NCBI GenBank assembly: GCA_046565595.1 | Contig: JBKHYG010000100.1 | Coordinates: 20,838 to 84,837 of the forward strand | Direction: 5' to 3' | DNA from: Actinomycetota bacterium | GTDB lineage: Bacteria; Actinomycetota; AC-67 | DNA: 64,000 nucleotides | Shown here: positions 1-28,157 of the stretch, piece by piece | How the letters are laid out: the number at the start of each line of letters is the position of its first letter | Position numbering within the stretch: the stretch's first letter is position 1 | The notes under the pieces: generated by a model | Databases searched by the model: none | What the model was told of the DNA's origin: nothing | Seen by the model: the letters and a program-made list of their open reading frames with translations, nothing else | Made by a program: the position numbers and the translations under genes

Positions 1-1109
1 GTCTTGTCAGGCATGGCCTCACCGGTGACCGGGTCCGGAACGAACTCGCGAAGCGGTGTCTGCAGGCCGCCGACCATCCCGGAGAAATAGATCGCGGGGG
101 CCCCAGTCTCCTCTTCGAGGGCGAGGCGAGTGCCATGCGGAAAGTCACTAGAGATGTACGGGTTGTCAGAGCCCTGCGCCTCGGGATGGTTGTTCCAATT
201 CACGATGGTCCCGATCGTGGAGCCGTCTGAGACACGCACGAACTGGGCGGTCGGAACACGAGGATCCTTCACGCTCGGAGGCCGTGAGTCACGGATGGCC
301 ATGGGCTGCTCGCCGGTCGCGAGTTTCACTTCTGCGGCTTCACGGCTGGTCCAAGCCTCGTAGACAGCATCGATGATCTGGGAACGGATGAACGCTTGGT
401 AGGCGGGGAACTTGCCGTCGGTGTTCAGGAAGAGCTGACCCCAGTAGCCCATCGTGTCGACACCCTCATGGGTGTGAGTCGAACTGACGACGAGTTCGTC
501 GATGGGCATTTCGGGGTAGCGCTTCTTCATCTCGTCGCGCGCACGCCGCACCTCGATGTTGAACAGCCCGACCACATCGAGCGAGACCATCGCAACGCTG
601 TCATCACCGAGTTCCATGACGACCGCACGAGCCCATGTGTCATCGGCGACACCGAGGGTGCAGGTGCTTCCGAAACCGGCGTTGGCCCATAGCCCGTCGA
701 ACTTGCCGAGCGAACTCGGGTCGCCAACGATGGTGACACCGCGGACCTCGCGGATGCCGGTCATGAGGCCGTCGCCGGTGTGATTCCACGCCTGGTCGAT
801 GTGGGGTTCGACCATCTCGCCGCGCGGAGGGTCGCCATCTAGGACCGGTTCCACATTCCGGTTGGTCGCACCGCCGTAGCAACCATCTCCATCCAGGTCC
901 TCGAAGGGCTCGCCCCAGATGCCGGTGGTCGGCTGCGGCGTGAAGTAGTCGGCCCATTCCGCCGGCGGTTCGCCCTGTGGCGTGATCGCGCGGACGCCGA
1001 AACCAACTCGGAAGGTCGGGTCGTCGGCCTGGCTCGCGGTGAATGCTCCGACCGCGGTCAGCAGCATCGCGAACAGTAAGACGCGTGTAGTCGGTCGGAT
1101 GTTCGGCAT
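1..1109 (-). CDS. Neutral/alkaline ceramidase-like secreted hydrolase (partial; C-terminal part lies beyond window start)
   Basis: Own translation of minus frame starting at ATG 1109: MPNIRPTTRVLLFAMLLTAVGAFTASQADDP (signal peptide), then GFGVRAITP and VVSSTHTHEGVD motifs resembling the neutral ceramidase N-terminal domain; RBS GAAGGAG upstream of the ATG. Absent from ORF track because there is no stop codon inside the window. Confidence 0.55.
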   Translation of the reverse strand, partial: MPNIRPTTRVLLFAMLLTAVGAFTASQADDPTFRVGFGVRAITPQGEPPAEWADYFTPQPTTGIWGEPFEDLDGDGCYGGATNRNVEPVLDGDPPRGEMVEPHIDQAWNHTGDGLMTGIREVRGVTIVGDPSSLGKFDGLWANAGFGSTCTLGVADDTWARAVVMELGDDSVAMVSLDVVGLFNIEVRRARDEMKKRYPEMPIDELVVSSTHTHEGVDTMGYWGQLFLNTDGKFPAYQAFIRSQIIDAVYEAWTSREAAEVKLATGEQPMAIRDSRPPSVKDPRVPTAQFVRVSDGSTIGTIVNWNNHPEAQGSDNPYISSDFPHGTRLALEEETGAPAIYFSGMVGGLQTPLREFVPDPVTGEAMPDK

Positions 1110-19907: not shown

Positions 19908-20010
19908 GCCCGAGAACCAGGCGGCCGGCTAAGAGTGGTGTGGCCCCCGAACCAGCGGCGGCTAAGAGTCGTGTGGGCCCCGAACCAGCGGGCGGCTAAG
20001 AGAAGCTGAC
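19908..20010. repeat. Three tandem imperfect ~34-bp direct repeats; the last copy supplies the final codons and stop of purM
   Basis: GCCCGAGAACCAGGCGGCCGGCTAAGAGTGGTGTGG / CCCCCGAACCAGCGGCGGCTAAGAGTCGTGTGG / GCCCCGAACCAGCGGGCGGCTAAGAGAAGCTGAC; core CCCGA(G)AACCAG(G)CGG..GGCTAAGAG. Confidence 0.7.
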
Positions 20011-21021
20011 GCCGGAGCCAGCGGTCACAGAGCCGACCTGGACGGCGGTCTCGCCGTGTGCGTTCGCGAGCGCCAGTGCGTCGTCCACCCGGTCGGACGG
20101 CACGACGAGCATCATCCCGAGCCCTCGGTTGAAGACTCGCCACGCCTCATCCGGTTCGATCTGGCCAAGCCTCTCTAGGTATCCGAAGATGGGTTCCCGC
20201 TTCCAGGCGGACGGATCGACGCTGGCTCCAAGACCTTCGGGCAGGACCCGGGGCAGGTTGCCAGTTATGCCGCCACCGGTGATGTGCGCAGCCGCATGAG
20301 TCAGGCTTTCTCTGGCCAGCGCCAGCACGGCGGGTGAATGGATGCGACATGGGGTCAGCAGTACCTCGCCAAGCGTGCGAGGCTCAGCCTCATCGAAACG
20401 ATCCTCGAGAACGAGATCATGATCGAGGATGAGTTTGCGGACCAGCGAGTAGCCGTTGGCATGCAGGCCGCTTGAGGCGAAGCCGATGATCGCATCACCT
20501 TCGCGCACCCGGTGCGCACCGAGCCGCGAGTCCTCATCCACGACTCCGACGCAGAAGGTTGCCAGGTCGTACTCGTCGATGTCCATGACACCGGGGTGTT
20601 CCGCCGTTTCGCCTCCGAGCAGAGCAGCGCCAGCCTGCCGGCAGCCTTCCGCGACCCCGGACACCAGGTCGGCGATCTTGCTCGGGATGACCTTCCCGAT
20701 GGCGATGTAGTCGAGGACGAACAGCGGCTCGGCGCCCTCGCAGACGACATCGTCTACGACCATCGCGACCGCGTCGATACCGATCGTGTCATGAACATCC
20801 AGCGTCTGGGCGATGAGCGTCTTCGTGCCTACACCGTCGGTACCTGACACCAGGATCGGCTTGCTCAGGTTCGCGAAACGGCCGTCGAACAGGCCCGCGA
20901 AGCCGCCGAGATCGCCTCGCACCTCTGGTCTGGTGGCCGCGCCGATGCGTTCCTTGATGAGTTCGACCGCACGATCTCCAGCCTCGATCGAGACGCCAGC
21001 CTGCTCGTAGGTGGAACTCAT
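19996..21021 (-). CDS. purM: Phosphoribosylformylglycinamidine cyclo-ligase (AIR synthetase)
   Basis: Start at ATG 21021 (MSSTYEQAGVSIEAGD aligns with canonical PurM N-terminus); AIRS N and C domains throughout. Confidence 0.9.
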   Translation of the reverse strand: MSSTYEQAGVSIEAGDRAVELIKERIGAATRPEVRGDLGGFAGLFDGRFANLSKPILVSGTDGVGTKTLIAQTLDVHDTIGIDAVAMVVDDVVCEGAEPLFVLDYIAIGKVIPSKIADLVSGVAEGCRQAGAALLGGETAEHPGVMDIDEYDLATFCVGVVDEDSRLGAHRVREGDAIIGFASSGLHANGYSLVRKLILDHDLVLEDRFDEAEPRTLGEVLLTPCRIHSPAVLALARESLTHAAAHITGGGITGNLPRVLPEGLGASVDPSAWKREPIFGYLERLGQIEPDEAWRVFNRGLGMMLVVPSDRVDDALALANAHGETAVQVGSVTAGSGVSFS

Positions 21022-21029
21022 CCCACCCC

Positions 21030-22466
21030 TCACACCAGGCGGGGTTGGTCAGGGACCATCTCGAGCACCATCTTCGGATCGACCAACCCGCCAGCGGGAG
21101 GCTCGATCGGATAGATGCCGTCGAAGCATGCCCGGCAGAATCCGGTCGCGGCTTTGCCGGTCGCGCGCACCATCGCCTCAAGGGAGAGGTAGGCGAGCGA
21201 GTCCGCACCGGTGAAGGCGCCGATCTCTTCGACGCTTAAGTCACTAGCGATGAGTTCCTTGCGGGTAGCCATGTCTATCCCGTAGAAGCACGGCCATCTG
21301 ACCGGCGGGCTGGTGATGCGCAGATGCACCTCTGTAGCTCCAGCCTCGCGCAGCAGCTTCACGAGTTGGCGGGTCGTGTTGCCTCGAACGATCGAGTCGT
21401 CCACGACCACCAGACGCTTACCCTTCACCGCGTTTCGCAGCGGATTGAGTTTCAGACGGATGCCGAGCTGGCGCATCGTTTGGGAAGGTTGGATGAAGGT
21501 GCGTCCCACATAACGGTTCTTGACCAGACCGTCGCCGTAGGGGATACCGCTGGCCTCGCTGTAACCGGCTGCCGCGACCGGCCCGGTGTCGGGTACCCCG
21601 ATCACCAGATCCGCCTCGATCGGAGACTCTTCGGCGAGGATCCTGCCCATCTCGCGGCGGGTCTCGTGGACGGTCACACCCTCCAGGATGCTGTCTGGAC
21701 GCGCCAGGTACACATACTCGAAGATGCAGAGTTTCGGGGTCGGCTTGGCGTAGATGTGGCTGGTCAAGCCTTCGGGGCCGATGCCGACGATCTCGCCTGG
21801 TTCGACCTCACGCACGAACTGCGCGCCCATGATGTCCAGCGCGCAGGTCTCGCTGGCGACGACCCAGCCGCCGGCAGGCAGGCGCCCGATCGACAGCGGA
21901 CGCACACCGTGGGGATCGCGGAAAGCCCACAGTTGGCTCTCGTCCATGACGACCATGCTGAAGGCGCCCTTGAGTGTCGGGACGACTTCCAGCAGCGCCT
22001 CTTGAAGGCTCCCGTCATGTTGAGCGAGTAGGCCGCAGACCAGATCCGAGTCGGTGGTCGCGCGCACGCCCCCGAGCCGCTGTTCGCGAAGGCGTTCGGC
22101 CAACTCCAGCGTGTTGGTCAAGTTGCCGTTGTGGCCGAGCGCGATCCCCGAGTCGTTGCGCAAGATCGGCCGGTACGAAGGCTGAGCGTTCTCCCATGTG
22201 CTCGAGCCGGTGGTCGAGTAACGGGTGTGGGCGATGCCGAGACTGCCACGCAGCGCGTTGAGGCTGGATTCGTTGAAGACCTGACTGACCAGACCCGTGT
22301 CCTTGTACACGATGATCTGTTCACCGTCCGAGACAGCCATGCCCGCGGCCTCTTGTCCGCGATGCTGGAGGGCGTAGATACCGAAGTAGAGGAGCTTGGC
22401 GACCTCTTCGTCAGGTGCCCAGATCCCGACGACGCCACATTCTTCCTTGGGAGATTCGACGCCCAC
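21030..22466 (-). CDS. purF: Amidophosphoribosyltransferase
   Basis: N-terminal Ntn Cys after short propeptide (MGVESPKEECGVVGIWA), PRPP-binding motif VVVDDSIVRGNT, C-terminal CFDGIYP. Confidence 0.9.
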   Translation of the reverse strand: MGVESPKEECGVVGIWAPDEEVAKLLYFGIYALQHRGQEAAGMAVSDGEQIIVYKDTGLVSQVFNESSLNALRGSLGIAHTRYSTTGSSTWENAQPSYRPILRNDSGIALGHNGNLTNTLELAERLREQRLGGVRATTDSDLVCGLLAQHDGSLQEALLEVVPTLKGAFSMVVMDESQLWAFRDPHGVRPLSIGRLPAGGWVVASETCALDIMGAQFVREVEPGEIVGIGPEGLTSHIYAKPTPKLCIFEYVYLARPDSILEGVTVHETRREMGRILAEESPIEADLVIGVPDTGPVAAAGYSEASGIPYGDGLVKNRYVGRTFIQPSQTMRQLGIRLKLNPLRNAVKGKRLVVVDDSIVRGNTTRQLVKLLREAGATEVHLRITSPPVRWPCFYGIDMATRKELIASDLSVEEIGAFTGADSLAYLSLEAMVRATGKAATGFCRACFDGIYPIEPPAGGLVDPKMVLEMVPDQPRLV

Positions 22467-22547
22467 GACCGAGAGTGTACCGGGCCGGGCACGGCCCCGG
22501 AAGCCCGCACACCCGAGCCTCCTGGGGCCGCACGCGACCCGGTGTTT

Positions 22548-22760
22548 CTAGAAGACGAGATCCAGCACGAATCCGACGAAAGCTCCGGTCAAGAGCGCGA
22601 CCAGCAGGGGCGTGTATCCGCGGACGAGGCCGATGATCGCTAGGAGCAGGGCCACTACCGCTATAGCCACGATCTGCGGGAGACTCAGCATGAATCCGAG
22701 CAATACCCCGACCAGGAAGCCGACTACGGAGAGCAGATCGCTCTGGGTCCTGACAGCCAC
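22548..22760 (-). CDS. Small membrane protein (two TM helices), hypothetical
   Basis: 70-aa hydrophobic ORF between purF and the HTH/NTase cassette. Confidence 0.45.
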   Translation of the reverse strand: MAVRTQSDLLSVVGFLVGVLLGFMLSLPQIVAIAVVALLLAIIGLVRGYTPLLVALLTGAFVGFVLDLVF

Positions 22761-22876
22761 TTCGTCGTCCTTTCGCCTGGCGGCACATACCTGCGTGCCG
22801 ATCGGGGGAAGTTGTACCCCTGGCTATCGGACGCGAAACCGCCGTCGACCGCCTGATGAGGCGTACTCGTTGGGCG

Positions 22877-23410
22877 CTAGAACCCGGATTCTTCCCGTGC
22901 CCGGCCCCAGTCCTCCTGGCAGCCGAACTCTGCGACCCAACCCTCGATGAATCCAAGGTCCAGATCGCCTCCCATGGCGGTGAGGATGGATGCGACGGCG
23001 TCGATATCTCGGGCCCTGCCAGCGACGAGCTTCATGACGATCAGGGATTCGGGTGATAAGACCGGGATCTTCACCCGGCCGATCTTCGTTTGGACCTGCG
23101 ACTCGATCGCGGATCGTTCGAACGGGGTGCCGGCGATGATGGCGTCCACGCGTGGATACCCCTCGCGGTGCATCCGCAACTGACCGCCCTGCTTCCAGTA
23201 GGACTCGACGGTCCATCCGTCTGCCTCTGCTGCCGCGACCAGGCGCTGCAGATCCGGGGGATCGAGGATGACTGCGAAGTCGACATCTTCGGTGGCGCGT
23301 ACCTCGTCTCGGTAGAGGTTCGCCGCCAGCCCCCCAGCCAACGCGTGAGGGACCTTCTCTCGCTCGAAGAGTTTGTGAACGACAAGGATGGTCGCGACCA
23401 GGTCAGGCAT
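22877..23410 (-). CDS. Minimal polymerase-beta superfamily nucleotidyltransferase (Lnu/ANT-like or TA-toxin-like)
   Basis: NTase signature hG[GS]x9-13DhD: HALAGGLAANLYRDEVRATEDVDFAV; 177 aa; start overlaps upstream HTH gene by 8 nt. Confidence 0.6.
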   Translation of the reverse strand: MPDLVATILVVHKLFEREKVPHALAGGLAANLYRDEVRATEDVDFAVILDPPDLQRLVAAAEADGWTVESYWKQGGQLRMHREGYPRVDAIIAGTPFERSAIESQVQTKIGRVKIPVLSPESLIVMKLVAGRARDIDAVASILTAMGGDLDLGFIEGWVAEFGCQEDWGRAREESGF

Positions 23411-23756
23411 CTAGGGCATCCTTGAGCGCACGCTGTTCGGCGTTCAGTCGCTCGGTCTCCTTCAACCGCGTCGAAGCGTCGAAAGGGAAGCCTGCGGTTC
23501 TCGGTTTGCGAACCAGCAACGCCGTACGCCGCAGGACCCTGATCGATCCCGTGATCCCGATCTGTTCGATCAGATCCTCCAGCTCGCCGCGGCCTTGCTC
23601 GAGTTGCTTGAGCCTTCCGGCCGCAGAGGGCCTGGGTCGAGAGACCCCGCGTTCCCAGCGTGACACGGTGACGGCGTCGGTTCCAAGGACACCGGCGAGA
23701 TCGGATTGAGTCCAACCGTTGGCTCGGCGGAGGCGTCGGATCCTCGAAGGCTTCAC
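23403..23756 (-). CDS. XRE-family helix-turn-helix transcriptional regulator
   Basis: N-terminal HTH: IRRLRRANGWTQSDLAGVLGTDAVTVSRWERGVSRP; 117 aa; translationally coupled to downstream NTase. Confidence 0.65.
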   Translation of the reverse strand: MKPSRIRRLRRANGWTQSDLAGVLGTDAVTVSRWERGVSRPRPSAAGRLKQLEQGRGELEDLIEQIGITGSIRVLRRTALLVRKPRTAGFPFDASTRLKETERLNAEQRALKDALDA

Positions 23757-23780
23757 TAGGCTTTAGCCTAGCACGATGCT

Positions 23781-25730
23781 TCAGTCGTCGGGACCCTTGG
23801 CTGCCCGCTCGGCGATCTCGGCGACGATCCCTGGGTCTGCCAGCGTGGTGACATCTCCCAGGGCCCGTTCTTCGGCCACATCACGCAAGAGTCGGCGCAT
23901 GATCTTTCCGCTACGGGTCTTGGGTAGATCAGGGGTGAACATCACCTGCGCCGGGCGTGCGATCTTGCCGATCTTGTTCGCGACATGATCGCGAAGCGTT
24001 GCGGTGAGTTCCTCGGAGGGCTCCACCCCGGCCCTCGGGATGACATAGGCGAAGATCGCTTGGCCGGTGAGTTGGTCGGTCTTGCCGACCACCGCTGCCT
24101 CCGCGACGCTCGGGTGATCAACGAGCGCGCTCTCGACCTCGGCTGTCGAGATCCGGTGGCCGCTTACATTCATCACATCGTCTACTCGGCCCATGAACCA
24201 GTAGTCGCCGTCTGCGTCCTGTCTGGTCCCGTCGCCGGGGAAGTAACGGCCGGGGAACTTCGACCAGTAGGTGTCCTTGTAGCGCTCCGGATCTCCCCAG
24301 ATGCCTCGCAACATCGACGGCCACGGATGCGTCAGCGTGATGTAGCCGCCGCCTGTTCCAGGCTCGATCCTGTTGCCGTCGTCGTCGACGATCTCAGCTC
24401 GGATGCCAGGCAACGGCCCGTTACAGCTCCCCGGCTTCAAGGTCGAGATGCCGGGCAGCGGAGAGAGCATGATGCTGCCGGTCTCGGTCTGCCACCATGT
24501 GTCGACGATCGGACACCGCGAACCGCCGATGTGTTCGTAGTACCACATCCACGCTTCGGGGTTGATCGGCTCGCCGACGCTTCCAAGGAGACGCAGGCTG
24601 GACAGGTCGTGTTTGGCGGGATACTCGGGCCCCCACTTCATGAAGGCGCGGATGGCGGTGGGTGCGGTGTAGAGGATGGTCGCGCGATACTTCTCGACGA
24701 TCGACCAGAAACGATCCTTGTCGGGGAAGTCAGGTGTTCCTTCGTAGAGGATGCCGGTCGTGTGGTTGGCGAGCGGACCGTAGACGATGTAGGTGTGCCC
24801 GGTGACCCATCCGCAGTCGGCGGCGCACCAGTAGATGTCGTCGGGCTTGATGTCGAAGACGAGCCTGTGAGTGGTAGCCGCTCCGACCAGATACCCGCCG
24901 GTTGTATGCAAGATGCCCTTGGGTTTGGCGGTCGTTCCGCTCGTGTAGAGGATGTAGAGCGGATCCTCTGAGTCCATGATCTCGGGTTCGCAGGTGTCGG
25001 GCTGTTCAGCGACCAGATCGTGGTACCAGTGGTCGCGTTCGCCGTTCCACTTGATCTCTTGGCCGGTACGTCGAACGACGATGCAATGCTTGATCGAGTC
25101 CGAACTGTCGCACGCTTCGTCAGCCGACGGTTTCAACGGCGTGATCTGACCACGCCGATTGCCTCCGTCGGCTGTGATACACGCGACCGCCTCTGCATCT
25201 TGGATCCGGTCAGCCAGAGCGTCCGCGCTGAAGCCGCCGAAGACAACCGAGTGGATCGCTCCGATCCGGGCGCATGCAAGCATGGAGATCGGTAGCTCTG
25301 GGATCATCGGCAGATAGATCGCGACGCGATCCCCCTTCTCGACGCCGAGCGCTCTGAGCGCGTTCGCCAGCCGCGATACATCTGCCAAGAGGTCGGTGTA
25401 GGTGATGGTGCGTGTATCGCCCGGCTCGCCTTCGAAGTGGAATGCGACCTTGTCACCGCCGCCGGCCTCCACATGTCTGTCGAGACAGTTCACGGTCACA
25501 TTCAGCTTCCCGTCGATGAACCACTGGGCGAAGGGCTCGTCCCATCCGAGCACCTTCGACCAGGGCTGCATCCAGTCCAATGCTTGGGCTTGCTCTGCCC
25601 ACCAGGCGGGCGGATCGGCGTCAGCCAGCTGGTAGATGCTCGGGTCATTCGCGTTAGCGTGGGCTGCGAAGTCGGGAGGTGGGGGGAAGGTGCGATCTTC
25701 GGTGAACAGTGCGTCGATCCGGTCGGTCAT
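23781..25730 (-). CDS. acs: Acetyl-coenzyme A synthetase (acetate--CoA ligase)
   Basis: 649 aa; AMP-binding motif YTSGTTAKPKG, Acs-specific regions and C-terminal PKTRSGKIMRRLLR. Confidence 0.9.
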   Translation of the reverse strand: MTDRIDALFTEDRTFPPPPDFAAHANANDPSIYQLADADPPAWWAEQAQALDWMQPWSKVLGWDEPFAQWFIDGKLNVTVNCLDRHVEAGGGDKVAFHFEGEPGDTRTITYTDLLADVSRLANALRALGVEKGDRVAIYLPMIPELPISMLACARIGAIHSVVFGGFSADALADRIQDAEAVACITADGGNRRGQITPLKPSADEACDSSDSIKHCIVVRRTGQEIKWNGERDHWYHDLVAEQPDTCEPEIMDSEDPLYILYTSGTTAKPKGILHTTGGYLVGAATTHRLVFDIKPDDIYWCAADCGWVTGHTYIVYGPLANHTTGILYEGTPDFPDKDRFWSIVEKYRATILYTAPTAIRAFMKWGPEYPAKHDLSSLRLLGSVGEPINPEAWMWYYEHIGGSRCPIVDTWWQTETGSIMLSPLPGISTLKPGSCNGPLPGIRAEIVDDDGNRIEPGTGGGYITLTHPWPSMLRGIWGDPERYKDTYWSKFPGRYFPGDGTRQDADGDYWFMGRVDDVMNVSGHRISTAEVESALVDHPSVAEAAVVGKTDQLTGQAIFAYVIPRAGVEPSEELTATLRDHVANKIGKIARPAQVMFTPDLPKTRSGKIMRRLLRDVAEERALGDVTTLADPGIVAEIAERAAKGPDD

Positions 25731-25970: not shown

Positions 25971-28157
25971 TCAGTTGGTAGTTCGATCGAACAGGCGACC
26001 GAACGCGTCGCGATGTGCGCGCGTCATCTCGTCGAGCGCGACAGCGGATGTTCCGAAGTTGAAACTTTCCCCGCCGACCCGTCCGAGGACCCTCGCGGGG
26101 ATGCCTACATCGGCGGCGGCCGTCAGGATCGTCGCTGAGTCCTGCGCGGAGACGATGACACGGCCGGTGGATTCGCTGAAGGCCGCCACATGTTCGGGAA
26201 GTCCCACCACGGAGATATCGACGGTCGCAGCGATCCCGCTTGCGATCGCCATCTCGGCCAATGCCACCAGGAGCCCACCGTCTGAGCAGTCATGGGCAGC
26301 TGTCAACCGGTCTGCCTCATAGAGGTCAGAAAGCAGACCGCAGAGGCGCCTCTCGAGGTCCAGATCCACCTGCGGGGGCATTCCTCCCAGGTGCCCGCGC
26401 GCGACCCAAGCCCATTCGCTACCCCCTAGTTCGGGCCTGGTTTCTCCGAGCAGGACTATCTCGTCGCCCTCCTGCCAGGAGTTGGTCAGCGGCTCGCCTT
26501 CAAGCAGCCCGACCATGCCGATGATCGGGGTCGGATGGATCTGCGTGTCGCCGGTCTGGTTGTAGAAACTCACATTGCCGCCCGTGACCGGTGTCTCGAG
26601 CACGCGGCAGGCCTCGCCGATCCCTTTGACAGCCTCGGCGAACTGCCACATGACCTCTGGATACTCGGGGTTGCCGAAGTTCAGACAGTTGGTGATCGCG
26701 ACGGGGCGCGCTCCGGTACATGCGACATTGCGAGCAGATTCGACGACCGCGAGCATCGCCCCGAGCCTGGGGTCAAGCTGTCCGAAACGGCCGCAACCAT
26801 CCGTAGAGATCGCCATAGCCCGGTCGATACCCTCGATACGGATGACCGCCGCGTCGCCGCCGGCGCTCTGCAGCGTGTTGTGTTGAACGATCTGGTCGTA
26901 CTGTTCGTAGACCCATCCCTTCGAGCAGATGTTTGGGCTCGCGAGTAACTCGAGCAGCGCATCGCCGAGATCCTTCGGCGGCTCGAGCCGCATCGGGTCG
27001 TCCGCCTGCAACGCATCCAGCCAGTCGGGCCGTCGCATCGGCCGTTCGTAGACGGGACCTTCGTCGGCCAGAGAGCGGGCCGGCATGTCTGCGACAACCT
27101 CGCCAGAGTGAGCGATCTTCAGGTTGCCGCCCTCGATGACGGTCGCGACCGGCGCTGCCCACGCTCCCCAACGAGAACAGATCTCCAGCGCCTGGTCCAC
27201 ATCCTCGGGCTTGACGATCGCGAGCATGCGTTCCTGCGATTCGCTCGTCAGGATCTCGAAGGCTTCCATGTCGGCCTCGCGCAATGCGACCGCATCCAGG
27301 TCGACCTCTAGTCCGGTGCCTCCGCGTGAGGCTGTCTCACTGGTCGCGCAGCAGAAGCCGCCCCCGCCCAGATCCTGCAGCCCTACCAACAAGCCGCGGC
27401 GAGCCAGTTCCACAGAAACCTCGATGATGACCTTCTCGGTGAATGGGTCACCGACCTGAACGCTGGGGCGTTTAGCTTCCGCTTCGTCGTCGAACGGCCG
27501 CGATGCCAGGACGCTCACACCTCCGATACCGTCCCGGCCGGTCTTGCTGCCGAACAGGATCGCAACATTGCCTTCGCCCTCTGCGACCGCCCTCTGAACC
27601 TCGTCCAAGCGTCCGACGCCGACGCACATCACATTCACCAGCGGGTTGCCCTGATAGCAGGGATCGAAGCGAAGTTCACCACCGACGGTAGGGATGCCGA
27701 TCGAGTTGCCATACTGGCTGATGCCGTGGACGACGCCTTCGACGAGATGCATCGTGGGGAACTTCGAAGGATCGCCGAACCGCAGCGGATCCAAGAGAGC
27801 AACCGGACGGGCGCCTGCCGAGATGATGTCGCGCACGATCCCGCCGACGCCCGTCGCAGCGCCCTGGACCGGCTCGACGAAAGAGGGGTGGTTGTGCGAC
27901 TCGAGCTTGAAGACCGCGACCATGCCGTCGCCGATGTCGATGATGCCAGCGGATTCGCCAGGGCCCATCACGACGCGCGGACCTTCGGTCGGCAGCGTCT
28001 TCAGGTGCACCTTCGACGACTTGTACGAGCAGTGTTCGCTCCACATAGCGCCATACATCGCGAGTTCGGCAGGTGTCGGTTCGCGGCCGAGCGTGTCGCA
28101 GATGCGGTGGTATTCGTCTTCTGTGAGCGCGAGTGCGAGCGCCTGTTCGACGCTCAT
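25971..28157 (-). CDS. purL: Phosphoribosylformylglycinamidine synthase subunit II
   Basis: 728 aa with duplicated AIRS-like domains; N-terminus MSVEQALALALTEDEYHRICDTLGREPTPAELAMYGAMWSEHCSYKSS is the canonical small-type PurL start. Confidence 0.9.
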   Translation of the reverse strand: MSVEQALALALTEDEYHRICDTLGREPTPAELAMYGAMWSEHCSYKSSKVHLKTLPTEGPRVVMGPGESAGIIDIGDGMVAVFKLESHNHPSFVEPVQGAATGVGGIVRDIISAGARPVALLDPLRFGDPSKFPTMHLVEGVVHGISQYGNSIGIPTVGGELRFDPCYQGNPLVNVMCVGVGRLDEVQRAVAEGEGNVAILFGSKTGRDGIGGVSVLASRPFDDEAEAKRPSVQVGDPFTEKVIIEVSVELARRGLLVGLQDLGGGGFCCATSETASRGGTGLEVDLDAVALREADMEAFEILTSESQERMLAIVKPEDVDQALEICSRWGAWAAPVATVIEGGNLKIAHSGEVVADMPARSLADEGPVYERPMRRPDWLDALQADDPMRLEPPKDLGDALLELLASPNICSKGWVYEQYDQIVQHNTLQSAGGDAAVIRIEGIDRAMAISTDGCGRFGQLDPRLGAMLAVVESARNVACTGARPVAITNCLNFGNPEYPEVMWQFAEAVKGIGEACRVLETPVTGGNVSFYNQTGDTQIHPTPIIGMVGLLEGEPLTNSWQEGDEIVLLGETRPELGGSEWAWVARGHLGGMPPQVDLDLERRLCGLLSDLYEADRLTAAHDCSDGGLLVALAEMAIASGIAATVDISVVGLPEHVAAFSESTGRVIVSAQDSATILTAAADVGIPARVLGRVGGESFNFGTSAVALDEMTRAHRDAFGRLFDRTTN

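Follow-up and report, generated by a model that had tools for sequence, protein, structure and literature searches.

The window, by which we mean the whole 64-kb stretch of DNA that was analysed, carries on its minus strand the genes purL, acs, XRE-HTH, NTase, a 70-aa membrane ORF, purF and purM, in this order (Table 1). The initial annotation had proposed that an HTH protein of 117 aa and an NTase of 177 aa are encoded here by an overlapping gene pair. Both ORFs were confirmed, and they share 8 nt (ATGCCTGA, positions 23403-23410). The pair had also been described as interrupting purF-purL. It does lie between these genes, but acs and the 70-aa ORF share the same gap and the pur cluster of the window is broken at further places as well. 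The claimed lack of a HEPN partner was borne out: the neighbours are acs, the XRE-HTH gene, the 70-aa membrane ORF and purF. Rfam searches detected nothing near the cassette, either at the gathering threshold over the whole window or at E≤1 between 22400 and 23900.

Table 1. Features of the cassette and its surroundings. Nucleotide positions are those of the window; protein features are given as residues.
Feature	Position	Strand	Description
purL	25971-28157	-	
acs	23781-25730	-	
Presence/absence segment relative to the closest relative (L108)	22871-23780	-	~910 nt
Extended -10-like element	23765-23773	-	TGcTAGGCT, read from the sequence; shares bases with the left arm of the palindrome
Palindrome	23756-23771		perfect, CTAGGCT-TT-AGCCTAG (7-2-7), 16 bp; putative operator for an XRE-HTH dimer
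XRE-HTH gene	23403-23756	-	117 aa, GTG start; putative antitoxin and autorepressor
NTase gene	22877-23410	-	177 aa, ATG start; MenT1-like minimal nucleotidyltransferase, putative toxin
70-aa membrane ORF	22548-22760	-	no Pfam match
purF	21030-22466	-	
purM	19996-21033	-	
NTase motif I	G26-G27		aligns to GG of MenT1
NTase motif II	D42-V-D44		within T40-x-D42-x-D44; aligns to MenT1 D41-V-D43; T40 resembles a phospho-acceptor
NTase motif III	D89		in 'RVDAII'; aligns to MenT1 'VVDLLF' (HMMER and hhalign); candidate for the third acidic or base-stacking strand
NTase motif IV-like	K127...R132-x-R134-D135		K127 on MenT1 K137, D135 on MenT1 D149
XRE-HTH protein	3-53, 58-82, 94-116		N-terminal HTH; two helices; linker, then long C-terminal helix

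Distribution and linkage of the gene pair

The synteny check at purF/acs revealed that the cassette is variably present. It is missing from the closest relative (L108), whose purF is 94% identical. In L108 one finds the C-terminus of acs with its stop codon, a stretch of 30 nt, and next a spacer, a 70-aa gene and purF, these three homologous to the window. The segment that distinguishes the two genomes begins immediately behind the acs stop codon and ends 6 nt beyond that of the NTase gene. Clear homology to L108 restarts at 22841, which places the right edge of the segment anywhere in 22842-22871. A relative at 79% purF identity also has no cassette, and carries two other genes between acs and purF. 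Among 80 metagenomic purF loci, which are more distant, none contained the cassette.

Elsewhere, the XRE-HTH/NTase pair was found in unrelated genomic contexts in several phyla. For example, in a Dormibacteria genome it starts 5 nt after the gene of the RNR small subunit. Disrupted copies were seen in L111, L016 and L020. The cassette is thus an accessory module, as the initial annotation had suggested on the basis of its position: it behaves as one unit of ~0.9 kb, which some close relatives carry and others lack. The difference from L108 may reflect insertion or loss, in either direction. The cassette has a GC content of 63%, like its flanks, and its composition profile and GC3 are host-like; composition gives no sign of recent transfer, and speaks neither for nor against transfer.

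The 70-aa membrane ORF was considered as a part of the module and rejected, because it is present in the cassette-free L108 and missing beside the cassette in other genomes. Paired end sites in the style of an integron cassette or a MITE were also dropped: in 15 loci there was no conserved motif, hairpin or repeat beyond the end of the NTase gene, and the 3' edge has no mobility gene. The idea that a mobile element carries the cassette found no support, since no homologues of the cassette were detected in viral contigs or phage records and the plasmid search returned only two remote matches, both from Nostoc.

In all 14 related loci with an NTase identity of 41% or more, the NTase gene is immediately preceded by the HTH gene. 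The overlap is mostly 4 nt; overlaps of 8, 4 or 1 nt were seen. The pairwise distances of the HTH proteins and of the NTases correlate (r 0.78, Mantel p about 4e-4). The pairing of the two genes is not due to chance. More distant NTases (27-34% identical, several phyla) are preceded by a different, non-HTH partner of ~70 aa, which overlaps the NTase start. Partner swapping of this kind is typical of toxin-antitoxin (TA) systems. The ~70-aa partner and the HTH protein's C-terminal half showed no relationship to one another, or to anything in PDB or Pfam. By eye, a 77-aa ORF upstream of P0240 resembles this partner, but hhalign gave the match a probability of 1.9%, which is not significant. Nor did the Nostoc plasmid homologue yield a significant match with its N-terminal extension.

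The nucleotidyltransferase

The Pol-beta NTase signature noted in the initial annotation (HALAGGLAANLYRDEVRATEDVDFAV) occupies residues 22-47, and the Pfam families matched by the protein belong to the NTase clan. The NTase scored 31.9 bits against AbiEii (PF08843, cut-off 22.5), aligning to positions 16-148 of the 238 in the profile. A MenT1 fragment matched the same N-terminal part (positions 10-169, 36.4 bits), and for both proteins the match that exceeds the AbiEii threshold covers the N-terminal two thirds of the profile. The NTase also passed the thresholds of DUF6036 (PF19502, 25.0 bits against 23.6) and DUF2204 (PF09970, 24.6 bits against 20.3), and most of its homologues carry both domains. 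The term 'unclassified' used in the initial annotation therefore did not hold, though both families are uncharacterised. The literature search on DUF6036 and DUF2204 found no paper on their function; DUF2204 was mentioned once, in passing, in a paper on an unrelated subject. The short NTases of the DUF6036/DUF2204/short-AbiEii type (~180-190 aa) make up a large family: with a cut-off of E≤1e-3 it counts 7,234 cluster representatives, and with one of E≤1e-10 it still counts 1,779.

The AF2 model of the NTase (pLDDT 92.3) gave MenT1 as its top Foldseek match (E 1.6e-10, TM 0.82/0.77), whereas the TM value normalised to MenT3 was 0.36. The closest solved structure is that of a TA toxin, and not of a housekeeping or resistance NTase. 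MenT1 is the toxin of MenAT1 of Mycobacterium tuberculosis (Rv0078B/Rv0078A; PDB 8AN4, 8AN5, 8RR5). The cassette ties two Pfam domains of unknown function, DUF6036 and DUF2204, to the MenT1 fold; as far as we could check, the descriptions of these families mention neither a link to MenT1 nor the partner genes seen here. The identity between the NTase and MenT1 is only ~21%, and for this reason the substrate could differ from that of MenT1.

Motifs I and II of Pol-beta NTases have the form hG[GS] ... [DE]x[DE] (PMC7450476). In the MenT proteins a conserved Ser or Thr phospho-acceptor, S78 in MenT3 and T39 in MenT1, precedes the first catalytic Asp by two residues, and T39, D41 and K137 of MenT1 are experimentally important (PMC11375011). 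Profile search and hhalign placed T40, D42, D44, D89 and K127 of the NTase on MenT1 T39, D41, D43, the Asp of 'VDLLF' and K137, respectively. None of these five residues varies among 30 homologues, and the same is true of G26, G27, R132, R134 and D135. Motif IV (Lys ... R-x-x-RD-x-x-D) is specific to DUF1814; in the NTase its last acidic residue does not line up cleanly, the equivalent of MenT1 D152 being offset by one residue (D135-x-[ED]137 here, D149-x-x-D152 in MenT1). Of 67 clade members, 66 have Thr two residues before the first Asp; in the wider family, 90 of 108 representatives have Thr or Ser there. By analogy with MenT1 T39, T40 would be the phospho-acceptor. Family, fold and active-site residues suggest that the NTase is a minimal toxin of the MenT/AbiEii family.

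The initial annotation had regarded the protein as much shorter than the DUF1814 toxins. This is true with respect to AbiEii, MenT3 and MenT4 (~290 aa), but not with respect to MenT1, whose chains have 189-196 residues. The bi-lobed architecture of the long toxins is not found in the NTase, and MenT1 lacks the C-terminal lobe as well; the missing lobe thus excludes the long subclass and not the family.

The XRE-HTH partner and its putative operator

Pfam placed HTH_3 (E 4.9e-10) and HTH_31 at residues 5-49 of the 117-aa protein. The best PDB matches by sequence were the antitoxins HipB and MqsA and the P22 c2 repressor; in sequence and fold searches together, the HTH domain was nearest to the antitoxins HipB, MqsA and HigA2 and to phage repressors. 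Fold matches of the AF2 model (pLDDT 89.3) were restricted to the HTH domain. The recognition region has the pattern [ST]-[VI]-S-R-W-E-R-G, with S32-G37 invariant. The C-terminal half gave no match in Pfam or PDB, yet it is conserved in 34 homologues: L75, L81 and Q108 are invariant, L80, F90 and R97 nearly so. Neither MenA1 nor the ~70-aa partner family is detectably similar to it, and PDB profile searches with the HTH family (maximum E 1) and with the ~70-aa family (maximum E 10) did not recover the MenA1 chain of 8AN5. The XRE-HTH gene is sometimes missed by gene callers.

The 5' edge of the cassette is marked by a palindrome, the last base of which is the G of the GTG start codon of the XRE-HTH gene. 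It is the sole match in the window even when two mismatches are allowed (expected 0.05). The exact palindrome lies directly upstream of the HTH gene in ten related loci (L001-L008, L011 and L016) and occurs also in L114. None of the 80 purF control loci has the exact palindrome. Variants that keep the CTAG core were found in six other related loci (L009, L010 and L012-L015). The arms are exactly conserved (CTAGGCT-NN-AGCCTAG) across loci whose proteins are only ~50% identical. The palindrome is likely to be an operator for autorepression. It had not been noticed in the earlier reading of the sequence. In annotations it is at times translated into spurious N-terminal extensions ('LGFSLVM').

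The actinobacterial -10 consensus is TANNNT. The palindrome overlaps a -10-like element of this form, and in eight of nine palindrome-carrying loci TG is found one base upstream of TAGGCT. The last T of the element is 9 nt before the XRE-HTH start codon, which implies a leaderless mRNA or one with a very short leader. A generic scan for sigma-70 promoters and terminators (22400-24200) detected nothing, and for this reason we base the candidate promoter on conservation and on the TANNNT consensus.

A toxin-antitoxin reading and its alternatives

We think it probable that the cassette is a compact, self-contained TA module of the MenT/AbiEii NTase kind, consisting of a MenT1-like toxin and an XRE-type antitoxin. 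The HTH-antitoxin and NTase-toxin architecture of the AbiE/MenAT kind, put forward in the initial annotation, gains support from the modelled MenT1 fold and from the accessory distribution. By homology, the NTase would use NTPs to extend tRNAs at their 3'-CCA acceptor ends, and would thereby block aminoacylation and translation. The N-terminal XRE HTH dimer would bind the 16-bp palindrome over the extended -10 promoter and the transcription start, and repress the operon. The conserved C-terminal helical region of the same protein would bind to the NTase. It would neutralise the enzyme by covering the active site, by provoking auto-phosphorylation of Thr40, or by both; MenA1 induces such auto-phosphorylation at Thr39 of MenT1. 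The two genes are translationally coupled and travel as a single unit of ~0.9 kb. The XRE-HTH protein probably both neutralises the NTase and represses the shared promoter; assigning toxin binding to its C-terminal helix is a conjecture.

MenAT1 is not autoregulated, and its antitoxin MenA1 has 68 aa and lacks a DNA-binding domain (PMC10435456, PMC11375011); the cassette pairs its NTase with a 117-aa XRE-HTH protein, the putative operator of which is conserved, and not with a MenA1-type antitoxin. In AbiE of Streptococcus agalactiae (AbiEi/AbiEii) and in MenAT3 and MenAT4 (TakA/TglT) a DNA-binding antitoxin is likewise encoded upstream of a DUF1814 NTase toxin, and the toxins share with the NTase one Pfam family and the S/T-x-D-x-D active-site loop. 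AbiEi represses its own promoter (PMC7450476). The AbiE antitoxin is however a winged-HTH protein, AbiEi/COG5340, and no AbiEi match was obtained for the 117-aa protein in Pfam or PADLOC; HTH_3 and HTH_31 were its only Pfam matches. The logic of the type II XRE-HTH antitoxins HipB, MqsA and HigA2, in which an HTH dimer sits on a palindromic operator overlapping the TA promoter, is similar. Their layout recurs here in the putative antitoxin gene coming first, in the coupling by overlap and in the palindrome over TGnTANNNT. Their toxins (the kinase HipA, the RNases MqsR and HigB) are unrelated to NTases, and the C-terminal 60 residues of the XRE-HTH protein match none of the three antitoxins.

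Alternatively, the pair could be mainly an abortive-infection or phage-defence unit like AbiE, in which the HTH protein silences the NTase and phage infection releases it to stop translation. Such a role would not conflict with the TA mechanism. The Pfam family of the NTase was founded on AbiEii, and among defence systems AbiE is abundant (PMC11375011). Close relatives differ in whether they have the cassette, its HTH domain is weakly similar to the defence-associated regulators RmrA and CapH, and PADLOC returned weak AbiEii matches (E 0.001-0.06). Set against this, the PADLOC scores are marginal, the AbiEi partner that defines AbiE is missing, homologues were absent from viral contigs and phage genomes, and the window contains no further defence or mobile-element genes beside the cassette. 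We consider a primarily defensive function rather unlikely.

Much less probable is a resistance or detoxification cassette, in which the NTase would modify small molecules (antibiotics) in the manner of Lnu or ANT(2'') and the XRE protein would be a mere repressor. LnuA and ANT(2'')-Ia gave clearly weaker matches than MenT1, below the family thresholds (NCBIfam LnuA, 11.5 bits against 300; PF10706, 17.3 against 21). These enzymes lack the MenT-type Thr and the motif IV context, and they are not known from overlapping two-gene operons with a conserved partner.

Least probable, by a little, is that the NTase is not a toxin but a regulator that modifies protein or RNA, for example by AMPylating a partner as MntA does HepT, or that the pair is a functionless, decaying remnant. 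In HEPN-MNT systems (HepT/MntA), likewise two-gene TA-like operons with a minimal Pol-beta NTase, the NTase is the antitoxin and not the toxin; the cassette differs from them in that it lacks a HEPN gene and its fold match is MenT1, not MNT. Within the DUF1814 family, MenT2 has no detectable toxicity, and some members are not linked to an antitoxin (PMC7450476). The closely related copy of L111 has a frameshift and an operator mutation. In the window, however, the catalytic residues, invariant in the family, are all intact, and a GC3 of 0.78 and the full length of both ORFs argue against decay in this genome.

A broader proposal can be made, although we hold it only tentatively. The ~180-190-aa DUF6036/DUF2204/short-AbiEii class might consist of minimal toxins of the MenT1 type that have exchanged their antitoxin three times or more (MenA1, the ~70-aa helical protein, XRE-HTH). 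In the clade of the cassette, the XRE-HTH antitoxin, unrelated to MenA1 or AbiEi, might both autorepress by way of the exactly conserved palindrome and trigger auto-phosphorylation of Thr40.

The MenT/AbiEii NTases are characterised toxins that block translation, and in phage defence their family is an abundant one. In the literature searched, the only antitoxins that we found described for them were COG5340, COG4861 and MenA1. The cassette would not represent a novel type of system; it would extend this known toxin-antitoxin family by an XRE-type antitoxin whose putative operator of 16 bp is sharply defined. The module is very small (0.9 kb) and cleanly bounded, and it is suited to experiments. 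It could be used to probe antitoxin-induced auto-phosphorylation of the active-site Thr with an unrelated partner, and the layering of autoregulation, which is missing in MenAT1, on neutralisation. If the XRE-HTH protein does trigger phosphorylation of Thr40, inducible auto-phosphorylation would extend to a further class of antitoxins.

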